Shown piece after piece: positions 4,134 through 64,000 of a stretch of DNA of 64,000 nt (the stretch's first letter is position 1; each line of letters opens with the position of its first letter). Made by a program: the position numbers and the translations under genes. The notes below the pieces were generated by a model. That model saw only the letters and a list, made by a program, of their open reading frames with translations. It was not told the DNA's origin and ran no database searches. Source of the DNA: Candidatus Termititenax persephonae (lineage in GTDB: Bacteria > Margulisbacteria > Termititenacia > Termititenacales > Termititenacaceae); assembly GCA_003864475.1 (NCBI GenBank), contig BGZO01000003.1, forward strand, positions 1,789 to 65,788, read 5' to 3'.

Positions 4134-5159
4134 ATGTTTGATTATTCTGGGTTTTCAGAAAAAAAACTATTAAAATTGTGTGATGATTCTAGTGTTGTCA
4201 TAAATCCTTCCGACTGGCAATGCCATTGGACGGCTGGAATTTATTCTATAGGCAAGTGTTTGCGTGATTATGCTGGTTTTCCAGATAAATTACCATTAAA
4301 CATTTGTACGGAGCATGGGCCGGGGCATAGGATGTATGACCATATAGACAAACATGAAATTAATAACACAACTTATAGTTTTCTTGTTTCTACCAGCAAG
4401 ACAATGAATTTATATAAAACAAAGTCAGCCAAGAAAGTGTATCATTGTGTGTATCCGGTAATTGCTTACCGTAGAAAATATAATATAGAACAGACAAAAA
4501 CAGCGCGAGGAACGATTGTTTTTCCCGCACATTCCTTGCCTGAGGTAGATACTGTTTTTGATCTAGATGACTTTTGCCGGCAATTAAAAGCTTTGCCAGC
4601 AGAATTTCAGCCAATATGTGTTTGCTTGCATCAGCATGATGTCAATAAAGGACAACATAAGGAGTTTATTAAACGTGGTTTTCCAGTTTATACTGCTGGC
4701 AACAGTAAAGACAAGAATTACATTGATAGATTTTATTCTATACTGCAAAATTTTAAATATTCTATGTCAAACTCTTTCGGTTCTTATGTGTATTTTTCTG
4801 TGGAAATGGGCATACCTTTTTCTATTATAGGGACAGGCGTTGATTTTACTAATGTTCGCGACTCATATACTCATTTGCAGGATTGGGGCGGAGATTTCTG
4901 GAAAAACTATCATGTTTATTGTGAGATTTTTCATAATAAACCGCGTACATTGATAACTCCAGAACAAAAAGAATTTGTAGAAGCCGGAGTGGGTTTGACT
5001 AGTTCTATGACTCCTAGAAAAATGAACTTTATTTTATGGCGTGCTTACCGGTCGTATTTATTGTTTGATTATGGTTTATGGAGAATATTTAAAGATATTG
5101 GGCATAATATTAAAGATAAACTATATATGTTTTTTGCGAAAAAAATGAACAATAAGTGA
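4134..5159 (+). CDS. Hypothetical protein (no family recognised)
   Basis: A 341-aa ORF with no competing frame, tightly spaced after the methyltransferase gene in an AT-rich segment. Confidence 0.6.
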   Translation: MFDYSGFSEKKLLKLCDDSSVVINPSDWQCHWTAGIYSIGKCLRDYAGFPDKLPLNICTEHGPGHRMYDHIDKHEINNTTYSFLVSTSKTMNLYKTKSAKKVYHCVYPVIAYRRKYNIEQTKTARGTIVFPAHSLPEVDTVFDLDDFCRQLKALPAEFQPICVCLHQHDVNKGQHKEFIKRGFPVYTAGNSKDKNYIDRFYSILQNFKYSMSNSFGSYVYFSVEMGIPFSIIGTGVDFTNVRDSYTHLQDWGGDFWKNYHVYCEIFHNKPRTLITPEQKEFVEAGVGLTSSMTPRKMNFILWRAYRSYLLFDYGLWRIFKDIGHNIKDKLYMFFAKKMNNK

Positions 5160-5471
5160 TTGATTTGTTATTGAAAAATCTTTGACAATGTCTTATACCA
5201 GAATTTGTTAGATATGATAATTTATTTCAAAAAAAATATTGGGAATGGGAGTATATTATAAGATGCATAGAGTTTTTTGTAAAAAAACAAGAATGTATAG
5301 AGATTATTTATTTCCAGAAAAATTTATGATAAACTATCAAAATTAAGTATTTACAGATTATTTGATTTATTTAGAGATAGAGACATCAATTTGATGTATC
5401 TAATGAAATATTAGATGATATTTTCTTGATTACTGAAACGCAAAGAAGAGTAGAGACGTAGGGGAATAATT

Positions 5472-51956: not shown

Positions 51957-51994
51957 CACATTGTCTCACTTTTTTTATTTACGCTATTTTGCCA

Positions 51995-52074
51995 ATGTCT
52001 CGCTACCGCGAGACACCCCTCAGGCAAAAATCTGCCGCGCAGATTTTTGCCAGCTCCCCTTGTCAAGGGGAGCT
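51995..52074. repeat. Left hairpin array (modules a-b-c) flanking the DUF559 gene
   Basis: Module a is GTCTCGC-tacc-GCGAGAC followed by ACCCCTC (51997-52021). Module b is GGCAAAAATCTGC-cgc-GCAGATTTTTGCC (52023-52051). Module c is AGCTCCCCTTG-t-CAAGGGGAGCT (52052-52074). Confidence 0.85.
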
Positions 52075-52081
52075 AACTTTT

Positions 52082-52456
52082 TCAGTTGGACAGGCTGTCT
52101 TTTATAGACTTCAAGACGGCTGTTAAATTGTGCTTTATTTGTTCGTTTGTGAAACGCAGGAATTTTATGTCGAGATTTTCGATAATCCGCTGGCGGTCTT
52201 TGTCTAGCGCCGACTGCCTGTCTGTTTGGTGTATGCCGCCGTCCACCTCGACAGCCAGTTTCCGCGCCGGGCAATAAAAATCCAGCACAAAAGCTTTCAC
52301 ACCATACTGCCGCCTGAATCTAAGGCCTAATTTATTGTTTTTAAGCGCCGTCCAGAGAATAAGTTCCGCAACGGTCATGTTTTTCCGCAAACGCCTGCGC
52401 GTGTCGATGTGTCTTTTCATGTTGTATATCTTCGTCACGTCCCGATTATACATCAC
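52082..52456 (-). CDS. DUF559 (Vsr-like) endonuclease domain protein
   Basis: RRRLRKNMTVAELILWTALKNNKLGLRFRRQYGVKAFVLDFYCPARKLAVEVDGGIH...RQRIIENLDIKFLRFTNEQI matches the DUF559 pattern. Confidence 0.8.
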   Translation of the reverse strand: MMYNRDVTKIYNMKRHIDTRRRLRKNMTVAELILWTALKNNKLGLRFRRQYGVKAFVLDFYCPARKLAVEVDGGIHQTDRQSALDKDRQRIIENLDIKFLRFTNEQIKHNLTAVLKSIKDSLSN

Positions 52457-52466
52457 GTAATTGGTT

Positions 52467-52590
52467 ATCTCCCCTTACTAAGGGGAGATGTCTTAAATCT
52501 GCTTGAAGCAAGCAGATTTAAGACAGAGGGGTGTCTGCGCTAGCAGACATGACGAAGCTGCCGGAGGGGTGTCTTGCGTCAGCAAGGCAT
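52467..52590. repeat. Right hairpin array (modules c-b-a-a), mirror image of the left array
   Basis: Module c is ATCTCCCCTTA-c-TAAGGGGAGAT (52467-52489). Module b is GTCTTAAATCTGCTTG-aag-CAAGCAGATTTAAGAC (52490-52524). Module a is GAGGGGT-GTCTGC-gcta-GCAGAC-AT (52526-52550). The second, weaker a copy is GAGGGGT-GTCTTGC-gtca-GCAAGGC-AT (52564-52590). Confidence 0.85.
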
Positions 52591-52731
52591 CACAGTGCGC
52601 AAAAAAGGCTTTGCCCCAAGCTGTTTTACTGTGTCATTGTGCAATATTGACCAGCTTTTTGACAAAAATTATTTAGAAATTGGCATAAAAAGTGTTTCTT
52701 TAATCTACACCACTTGATAAAGGAGCGCGGA

Positions 52732-62454: not shown

Positions 62455-62545
62455 CGCGGCGGGAAATTTCAGAAAAAATTTGCATCGATTTTTTAGAACT
62501 GCCGATAAATCAATTATGTTTATTCCGGGAATAAATCCGCCGCCT
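62455..62545. repeat. Copy 1 of a direct repeat (HEPN gene 3' end plus downstream region)
   Basis: 82 nt (62464-62545) are identical to 63919-64000. One extra G in copy 2 lies just upstream. The offset is 1455 bp. Confidence 0.9.
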
Positions 62546-63908: not shown

Positions 63909-64000
63909 CGCGGCGGGGAAATTTCAGAAAAAATTTGCATCGATTTTTTAGAACTGCCGATAAATCAATTATGTTTATTCCGGGAATAAATCCGCCGCCT
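63909..64000. repeat. Copy 2 of the direct repeat; includes the last 26 nt (63975-64000) of a second HEPN-type gene running off the window
   Basis: Identical to 62464-62545 over 82 nt, including the stop codon (TTA at 63975-63977 on the plus strand). Confidence 0.9.

Follow-up and report, generated by a model that had tools for sequence, protein, structure and literature searches.

A DUF559 gene enclosed by inverted triplex-type repeats in Candidatus Termititenax persephonae, a candidate selfish cassette

A small DUF559 gene in Candidatus Termititenax persephonae lies inside an inverted pair of composite, triplex-type repeats, and the same block recurs between unrelated neighbors in two other Margulisbacteria contigs. 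In the window analyzed here (the whole 64-kb stretch of DNA), the gene occupies the intergenic region between leuD and a conserved 159-aa ORF, and with its repeats it forms a unit of ~0.6 kb (51995-52590). We favor, at roughly even confidence, the reading that this unit is a selfish cassette, REP/RAYT-like or homing-like, encoding a nuclease for which the unit's own folded repeats are the substrate.

The earlier note had described hairpins of three kinds, a, b, and c, on both sides of the gene, and all were present in mirror order, as a'-b-c on the left (51995-52074) and c-b-a-a on the right (52467-52590). The left set is the downstream terminal of the gene. Its outermost element is module a' (51995..52021, minus strand; ATGTCTCGC-tacc-GCGAGACA-CCCCTC), which comprises a hairpin (TGTCTCGC/GCGAGACA, 51996-52015) and a G-rich head, GAGGGGTG, read on the minus strand from 52021 to 52014. 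The outer edge of a' is the terminal ...ACAT end of the unit, and homology with the cassettes of the other two contigs (L001 and L002, described below) stops exactly there. Module b of this terminal (52023..52051) is a perfect 13-bp hairpin, GGCAAAAATCTGC cgc GCAGATTTTTGCC, that forms the spacer between c and the head, and module c (52052..52074) is a palindrome, AGCTCCCCTTG-t-CAAGGGGAGCT, with 11-bp arms and a 1-nt center. The upstream terminal begins with c (52467..52489; ATCTCCCCTTA-c-TAAGGGGAGAT) and continues into b (52489..52525), a perfect hairpin of 17 bp; the range of 13-16 bp first given for the b stem thus fits the left copy but not the right. The first module a on this side (52526..52549, plus strand) has the head GAGGGGTG, the hairpin TGTCTGC/GCAGACA, and a final T. 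A second head-plus-a unit (52564..52590, plus strand; GAGGGGTG TCTTGC gtca GCAAGG CAT, with one G.T pair) is the outermost element that aligns with the ends of L001 and L002. Between both a modules is an inverted, plus-strand copy of the gene start region (52546..52557, copying 52430-52441; 12 nt, 11/12 identical), which may be the remnant of a second, truncated copy.

No copy of modules a, b, or c was found in the 64-kb window outside this locus. The pattern GAGGGGTGTCT matched three times against 0.3 expected, and the c and b patterns matched twice each against 0 expected, with every match at the DUF559 locus. Perfect stems of at least 8 bp numbered 14 in the window once overlaps were removed, and 4 of these 14 were at the locus, where a fifth, the right-hand c, had been removed for its overlap with b. 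DNA folding z-scores were -8.7 for the right set and -10.5 for the left, and the GAGGGG head was left unpaired in both minimum-energy DNA folds, computed with tools that use Watson-Crick pairs only. A generic triplex-motif detector reported two sites only in the window, both flanking the DUF559 gene.

The three kinds of hairpin did not hold up as independent types. Instead, hairpin c (CTCCCCTT/AAGGGGAG) and the 5ʹ head of module a (GAGGGGTG) together form a single mirror-repeat motif, b is a variable spacer hairpin within it, and a alone is an extra. Outward from the gene, each repeat therefore reads as the pyrimidine/purine hairpin c, the spacer hairpin b, the G-rich head mirroring the purine arm of c, and the hairpin a (...ACAT). 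Between AAGGGGAG and GAGGGGTG, seven of eight positions fit triplex rules, and, judged by sequence, c plus head bears the hallmark of a purine-motif intrastrand triplex of the TM/TMECO/BoxC kind. The pair has the homopurine-arm hairpin and the mirroring third segment that define a class II purine TM in sequence terms, with a second loop that is not short but 31-39 nt long and contains hairpin b. Only Margulisbacteria and a few other lineages have the a hairpin; in copies from across phyla, the 30 nt that follow the head formed little more pairing than shuffled sequence (3.8 versus 3.3 bp). As to which strand folds, the mismatches comprised two G.T, no A.C, and one other, which is very few cases.

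Across 85 distinct copies, the base adjacent to c covaries with the base adjacent to the head in the manner of triplex rules (A with A or T, G with G, C with T). An A was matched by A in 11 copies and by T in 4, a C by T in 15 of 17, and a G by G in 42 of 49, with a mutual information of 0.67 bit that none of 10,000 permutations reached. The length of the C-run in c also changes in step with that of the G-run in the head, at five and five beside a related DUF559 gene (L201) and three and three in a gene-less Margulisbacteria doublet (L122). In 43 of the 85 copies, where ~5 were expected, the b spacer contains a perfect stem of 5 bp or more, and these stems have 37 different sequences, such that sequence varies while pairing is kept. 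Mirror covariation, joint run lengths, and kept b pairing indicate that the structure of the repeat is under selection.

Such structure could in principle belong to a whalefall-1-like small RNA whose transcription runs outward from the gene. Matches to Rfam whalefall-1 (RF01762) do cover c-b-head in the outward direction on both sides and in L001 (17.8, 14.7, and 19.8 bits), and the layout of two hairpins and a G-rich tail is shared. These scores are all far under the gathering score of 37, however, and none of 19 other motif-bearing loci reaches it. There is also no evident promoter, and mirror covariation is not a feature of RNA secondary structure. We regard a small RNA as very unlikely.

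It is also quite unlikely that the hairpins are expression signals only, serving as terminators, insulators, or mRNA-stabilizing structures for the gene and its neighbors. The left set had been proposed as a bidirectional terminator; this survives for left c only, which together with AACTTTTTC scores as a leuD terminator through a T-run on the plus strand, and not for the rest of the set. The downstream terminal does directly follow the stop codon of the DUF559 gene, and the upstream c is where a −35 element would be expected. Yet no T-run follows b or a, the right-hand set lies between divergent genes, and gene-less doublets and solo copies of the repeat exist. A terminator role would moreover leave the c/head covariation, which is of the mirror and not the complementary type, unexplained.

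The gene itself (52082..52438, minus strand) encodes 118 aa from a GTG at 52438 that is conserved in relatives; the 124 aa of the earlier note correspond to the longest ORF, which extends to 52456. The protein belongs to Pfam DUF559 (PF04480; E = 1.8e-26, 92.6 bits against a cut-off of 20.6), and its Pfam matches are DUF559 and MTES_1575 only. Compared with L001 and L002, dN/dS for the ORF is 0.085-0.13, and the ORF is under purifying selection. Residues D53, E64, D66, and H70 are invariant across 38 sequences. An AlphaFold model (pLDDT 89) was compared using Foldseek, and the predicted fold best matched 3HRL (TM-score 0.86), followed by the homing endonuclease I-Bth0305I (3R3P, TM-score 0.75), at a probability of 1.0; it also matched Vsr, and a sequence match to 3HRL was obtained at E = 1.7e-10. 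By its dN/dS, invariant catalytic-type residues, and predicted fold, the protein looks like a functional Vsr-like PD-(D/E)xK nuclease. DUF559 is, to our knowledge, a very large family of unknown function, and we know of no member with known nuclease activity or substrate, which weighs against a selfish cassette. T. persephonae has the paralogs NO2_0684 and NO2_0858.

A TATAAT box (52445..52450, minus strand) is situated 6 nt upstream of the GTG start and is invariant in the alignment of the window, L001, and L002 cassettes. A simple promoter scan did not call this box and found no −35 match; the box is nonetheless likely to be the gene's own promoter, and its placement may give rise to a leaderless mRNA. 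The position of this putative promoter bears on a further possibility, namely that the gene undergoes inversion, programmed or occasional, with its inverted terminals as substrates. DUF559 is 14-fold enriched among predicted inversion targets (PMC9881135), and the A-type terminal, which stands upstream of the gene in the window and L002, is found on its downstream side in L001. With the promoter inside the segment and moving with the gene, inversion would switch nothing, and no recombinase gene is nearby. A single flip across species is also explained by entry of the gene into a doublet in either orientation. An invertible segment is accordingly very unlikely in our estimation.

The earlier note had suggested a small mobile or homing-type unit, and recurrence of the block upholds this. 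L001 has the arrangement a'-b-c, gene, c-b-a between a MucB_RseB-like gene and FtsX, and L002 has it between CoaE and an unknown gene. Homology among the three cassettes begins and ends at ATGTCT...AGACAT, the outer ends of the a modules. A sister species, Ca. Termititenax dinenymphae, has a leuD site without the cassette, where leuD is followed by 214 bp and then by the ortholog of the next ORF (76% amino acid identity); the cassette was likewise absent after leuD in two further Margulis contigs. The T. dinenymphae locus nonetheless falls short of a clean empty site: ~110 unrelated bases stand in place of the cassette, such that insertion and replacement are indistinguishable there, a point against a selfish cassette. 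The lineage also contains gene-less doublets (L135, L126, L122, and L119, the last in the same MAG as cassette L001), of which L135 folds into one long hairpin, and solo terminals (L004, L128, and L129). L117, which is syntenic to L004, has one c palindrome with b-head-a arms outward on both sides. Some of these observations count against a selfish cassette: the L004 and L117 copies occupy the same position in two species and so are stably inherited, not visibly mobile; the three cassettes are only ~77% identical and are thus old copies; and no target-site duplication was seen at any of the three.

In a sample across phyla, the motif is strongly enriched next to DUF559 genes. In 119 motif-selected loci of 8 kb each, five DUF559 ORFs were found, all within 100 bp of the motif, and the closer relatives that we sampled (L201, L202, L206, and L207) were all flanked by triplex-type motifs, with L206 and L207 encoding an identical protein in two different gene contexts. 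Escherichia coli ycjD, a DUF559 gene whose product is 38% identical, has a TMECO-type motif ~170 bp downstream. Against a selfish cassette, ~95% of triplex-type copies sampled across phyla had no DUF559 gene in their 8-kb block, and 1 of 58 distant DUF559 genes on viral contigs had triplex-type flanks. The latter rules out such flanks as a general feature of DUF559 genes. Around DUF559, the repeats also differ between phyla in polarity and arrangement, with heads pointing inward in L043, direct repeats in L047, L095, and L202, and a one-sided repeat in L017, which again speaks against that reading. The earlier note had named as contrary outcomes that the modules would be ubiquitous REP-like repeats without enrichment near DUF559 genes and that the mirror order would be unique; c plus head is indeed widespread and mostly found without DUF559, but DUF559 enrichment is strong and the mirror order is reproduced. 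A literature search on DUF559, including its combination with palindrome or hairpin, returned no description of this gene-repeat arrangement.

These distributions raise the possibility, which we consider doubtful, that the gene is a passenger at a fragile site. Doublets of triplex repeats would then be hot spots of recombination and instability that capture or keep small selfish genes, and DUF559 would have no specific relation to the repeats and act elsewhere, for example in restriction, defence, or repair. Holder et al. 2015 (PMC4666352) tie TM repeats to local genome rearrangement with no mobility genes nearby, and the prevalence of motif copies without DUF559, the variable repeat geometry around the gene between phyla, and weak PADLOC hits (a methyl-directed restriction enzyme and DpdF) all fit a passenger. 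A hot spot should take up many kinds of gene, however, whereas every DUF559 ORF in the 119 motif-centered loci adjoins the motif, the motif flanks every close relative sampled, and the gene-plus-repeat unit has identical boundaries at three unrelated loci.

Under the selfish-cassette reading, the unit would be one member of a small family in Margulisbacteria, in which a nuclease gene with its own putative promoter is carried inside inverted composite repeats. The nuclease may recognize either the repeat in its folded form or the junction within a doublet. A nick or cut at the repeat could then lead to copying of the gene into gene-less doublets, in effect homing by way of the ~85 bp of homologous repeat at either end, or alternatively to the spread and upkeep of the repeats. 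Such a scheme would resemble that of RAYT with REP/REPINs, with an unrelated enzyme. More tentatively, small DUF559 nucleases could be the missing enzyme partners of TM/TMECO/BoxC/PIT repeats in general, recognizing the triplex- or hairpin-folded strand, cutting it, copying themselves into doublets, and spreading or homogenizing the repeats. We know of no origin, function, or partner protein for triplex-type repeats (BoxC/TM/PIT), which have been known in bacteria for decades. If this wider proposal were true, structure-specific mobile elements would gain a new class, with a Vsr-like nuclease in place of a transposase, the local genome instability that has been reported at TM sites would have a cause, and there would be a repeat-enzyme partnership analogous to REP/RAYT yet mechanistically different. 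The case is compact, with a 118-aa protein, 85-nt repeats, and a series of cassette, doublets, solo copies, and cassette-free orthologous site. Because of this series and the covariation that follows triplex rules, action of DUF559 on folded triplex repeats is testable with oligonucleotides and one small protein.

Among known systems, the repeat is comparable to TM, TMECO, BoxC, and PIT, which are described as bacterial intrastrand triplex motifs (Hoyne et al. 2000, as cited in Holder et al. 2015, PMC4666352). It shares with them the one-strand order of pyrimidine arm, purine arm, and G/T-rich mirror segment (class II purine motif), intergenic location, multiple copies in many phyla, and frequent occurrence as inverted pairs of two subtypes, here an A-type with a C-type. 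It differs in its long second loop with hairpin b and in the extra terminal hairpin a. Published TM searches, which allowed loops of 0-10 nt (Hoyne et al. 2000) or 1-6 nt (Holder et al. 2015, PMC4666352), would miss the repeat because its second loop exceeds these limits. The pair in the window also encloses a nuclease gene, whereas the account of Holder et al. (PMC4666352) reports no mobility function.

The predicted catalytic fold is that of 3HRL and of I-Bth0305I, a Vsr-like EDxHD homing endonuclease (3R3P), and presence or absence at an orthologous site may be a further likeness to the latter. Unlike I-Bth0305I, the gene described here stands alone between genes, outside any intron or intein; its 118-aa product has no extra DNA-binding domain; and the gene occurs at unrelated loci with structured inverted repeats as its bounds. 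Sharp-ended terminal inverted repeats (here ATGTCT...AGACAT) and gene-less derivatives with the same ends are shared with MITEs and small TIR transposons, but the cassette has no DDE or serine/tyrosine transposase, and no target-site duplication was seen at the three copies. REP/REPIN-RAYT systems (REPtrons) have tens to hundreds of repeat copies in the genome of the enzyme gene. As in the Margulisbacteria unit, one enzyme gene lies between inverted hairpin repeats that also occur as gene-less doublets or solo copies, and a doublet folds into one long hairpin, as does L135. In the unit described here, however, the enzyme is a predicted Vsr-like PD-(D/E)xK nuclease in place of an HUH (IS200/IS605 TnpA-like) tyrosine transposase, and the repeats carry a mirror, triplex-type element.

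The DUF559 gene of the window, read on the minus strand at 52082–52456 (Pfam DUF559, E = 1.8e-26), was described in the earlier note as framed by three types of hairpin module in mirror order, and this layout was found as claimed, with a′-b-c on the left and c-b-a-a on the right. To the left of the gene lie a′, the inverted form of a (51995–52021), b with a perfect stem of 13 bp (52023–52051), and c, a 23-nt palindrome (52052–52074); to the right are a second c (52467–52489), a b with a perfect 17-bp stem (52489–52525), and two a modules (52526–52549 and 52564–52590). Each of the three patterns was far more frequent than in shuffles, with all matches within the 64 kb falling at this locus. Of the 14 perfect hairpins that the window holds at stem lengths of 8 bp or more, overlaps removed, 4 are also here (the right-hand c is a fifth, left out for its overlap with b). 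Folding of the two module sets as single-stranded DNA gave z-scores of −8.7 and −10.5, and the GAGGGG head, the G-rich 5′ part of a, was left unpaired between b and a in the predicted folds. That these hairpins are terminators is among the less likely readings. Between the two a modules, 52546–52557 (GACATGACGAAG) matches the start region of DUF559 (52430–52441) in inverted orientation at 11 of 12 positions and may be the remnant of a second, truncated cassette. Elsewhere in the window, two identical stretches of 66 bp or more, which contain the palindrome TTTATTCCGGGAATAAA, stand in direct orientation at 62480–62545 and 63935–64000, 1455 bp apart, with the second copy running past the window end.

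The order a′-b-c, gene, c-b-a was found again on two other Margulisbacteria contigs, L001 and L002, encoding proteins 79–82% identical to that of the window. The L001 cassette has a MucB_RseB-like gene on one side and FtsX on the other, and that of L002 has CoaE and a gene without assigned function. In the three-way alignment, homology starts at ATGTCT and stops at AGACAT with unrelated flanks, which supports the suggestion of a small mobile or homing-type unit; no target-site duplication was seen at the three cassettes. In Ca. T. dinenymphae (L122), 214 bp separate leuC-leuD from an ortholog of the ORF that comes next in the window (76% amino acid identity), and alignment shows conservation to the leuD stop, resuming at about window position 52637. 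Nothing there corresponds to the stretch from 51957 to ~52630, cassette and every hairpin included; the orthologous site is cassette-free but not clean, as ~110 unrelated bases are present. Such an alignment fits gain or loss of the unit. No cassette was found after leuD in two further Margulisbacteria contigs. At the position of the window's cassette, L122 carries a long inverted repeat of ~90 nt 3′ of leuD (5137–5226, TTTAGTGAAGTATATTTTAC...AAAATATACTTCACTAAA).

The purine arm of c reads 5′-AAGGGGAG and the head 5′-GAGGGGTG, such that the head mirrors the arm and is not complementary to it. Because of this mirror relation, c and head carry, as judged from sequence, the hallmark of an intrastrand triplex of the purine-motif type (class II), with hairpin b placed in the connecting loop. 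A scan of genome contigs for CCCCTTNNNAAGGGG-N16-46-GAGGGGTG yielded at least 119 loci in many phyla. We then pooled 85 distinct strict copies (c of the CTCCCCTT...AAGGGAGG type) from the window and all loci examined, the genome-scan loci being those among the matches listed. Across these, the nucleotide just 3′ of the purine arm changes in step with the one just 5′ of the head, following triplex rules: A is matched by A in 11 copies (by T in 4), C by T in 15 of 17, and G by G in 42 of 49, with a mutual information of 0.67 bit that was reached in 0 of 10,000 permutations. Within single elements, the two ends differ in concert: those of the window, L001, L002, and the gene-less locus L135 each pair an A/A end with a C/T end. 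The C-run of c and the G-run of the head also match in length, at five and five or three and three (L201, L122). Perfect spacer stems of at least 5 bp were present in 43 of the same 85 copies vs ~5 expected, comprising 37 different sequences. The a hairpin, of the form TGT(C/T)T..N..A(G/A)ACA, covaries within Margulisbacteria and is not a general module across phyla.

Weak matches to the Rfam motif whalefall-1, all below the gathering threshold, cover c-b-head read outward on both sides of the gene (window 52465–52535, plus strand, and 52016–52076, minus strand; L001 6362–6423). The whalefall-1 consensus shows this same arrangement, with two hairpins followed by a G-rich tail. Whalefall-1 has been catalogued among orphan RNA motifs (PMC2864571), and this "RNA" may in reality be a DNA repeat of the triplex type. 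We regard a small RNA as a less likely identity for the hairpins. Triplex repeats of bacteria (TM/TMECO) were described by Holder et al. 2015, together with their inverted A+B pairs and the local instability around them; no mobility function was found nearby, and the text makes no mention of DUF559 (PMC4666352). Loops of 1–6 nt were permitted in that search, and c-b-head would therefore have escaped it.

From a metagenome scan under stricter settings we obtained 17 loci, which, pooled with the genome scan, revealed three kinds of Margulis-type element. Doublets of the form a′-b-c-[16–31 bp]-c-b-a, without a gene, occur at L135, L126, L122, and L119, the last in the same MAG as the L001 cassette. 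Their spacers have a TCCGTATT-like core that also occurs in the part of the cassette separating c from TATAAT, and a doublet is predicted to fold as a single long hairpin. Solo terminals (one c-b-head-a set) occur at L004, L128, and L129, and at L117 (120–240), syntenic with the L004 terminal of a second species, one c palindrome has outward b-head-a arms on both sides, so that two terminals share a single c. In the window and L002, the A-type terminal, with A beside the purine arm, is found upstream of the gene, and in L001 downstream of it; either the gene segment was inverted between the palindromic c's, or the gene entered a doublet either way round. DUF559 appears in a 2023 survey with a 14-fold enrichment among predicted targets of inversion, on which the survey does not comment (PMC9881135), and we consider an invertible switch a less likely explanation of the cassette. 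No description of DUF559 with such repeats was found in the titles and abstracts of the papers examined that mention DUF559, or in the text of that survey.

The closest proteins to the window's DUF559 come from Candidatus Termititenax and other Margulisbacteria. Ca. T. persephonae NO2_0684 and the truncated NO2_0858, on contigs other than the window's, are 97% and 95% identical to it, which suggests that a number of recent copies exist, whether in a single genome or among very close ones. As a TATAAT 6 nt upstream of the conserved GTG is invariant in the three-cassette alignment, a promoter internal to the cassette is suggested; the mRNA would perhaps be leaderless. Purifying selection acts on the ORF (dN/dS 0.085–0.13), and D53, E64, D66, and H70 are invariant among 38 relatives. 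The AlphaFold model (pLDDT 89) best matched the DUF559 structure 3HRL, followed by the Vsr-like homing endonuclease I-Bth0305I and then Vsr-type restriction/repair nucleases.

Using our own DUF559 profile on six-frame ORFs of the motif-selected loci (8-kb blocks), we detected a DUF559 ORF in 5 of the 119 among the matches listed, all five within 100 bp of the motif (probability roughly 1e-6 under random placement in the blocks). The proposed association of modules and gene held for these ORFs and for the closer relatives described below, but not for the motif at large: with so few loci encoding DUF559, ~95% of the copies among the matches listed are solo REP-like repeats. Some genomes have many copies. 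The Oscillospiraceae MAG SIG471 has at least nine (L029, L031, L054, L073, L082, L083, L088), including a tandem run of three spaced at 107 bp. The copies of this genome share a conserved tail (GTGTAGGGCGTAGCCCGTCTATTTAAT), and no DUF559 was found in these blocks. Fragile repeats that carry DUF559 as no more than a passenger are the main alternative, which seems to us rather improbable. Triplex-type motifs flank every closer relative of the window's protein whose locus was read, with a geometry that differs between phyla: a Margulisbacteria locus (L201, protein 52% identical) has the heads-out architecture of the window, Mariniphaga (L202) has compact direct copies around DUF559, and two Armatimonas metagenome contigs (L206, L207) encode an identical 125-aa protein with the same flanks in two gene contexts, ABC transporter/DUF6785 in one assembly and glycosyl hydrolase 38 in the other. 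At distant DUF559 genes on viral contigs, such flanks were seen in 1 of 58. E. coli K-12 ycjD (38% identical) has a TMECO-type motif ~170 bp downstream, where a partial duplicate of the ycjD 3′ end precedes the motif CCCCTCGCCCCTCTGGGGAGAGGGTTAGGGTGAGGGG (L208 4040–4430); the end of the ycjD ORF is itself a degenerate C-rich/G-rich palindrome. In a Myxococcota MAG (L095 4790–5574), each of three tandem 187-bp repeats consists of a DUF559 3′ end and a triplex-type motif.

Collectively, a nuclease-family gene and structured repeats form a conserved unit with sharp ends, present at unrelated loci and accompanied by gene-less forms, and selection acts on the protein as well as on the structure of the repeats. 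We give about an even chance to a model in which the substrates of the nuclease are its own repeats in folded form, or doublets; such action would copy the gene into doublets, or spread and maintain the repeats. The enzyme class and the absence of an intron or intein and of target duplication exclude the cassette from membership in the REP/RAYT or homing endonuclease families; in its proposed working, it would nonetheless be similar to both of these systems.
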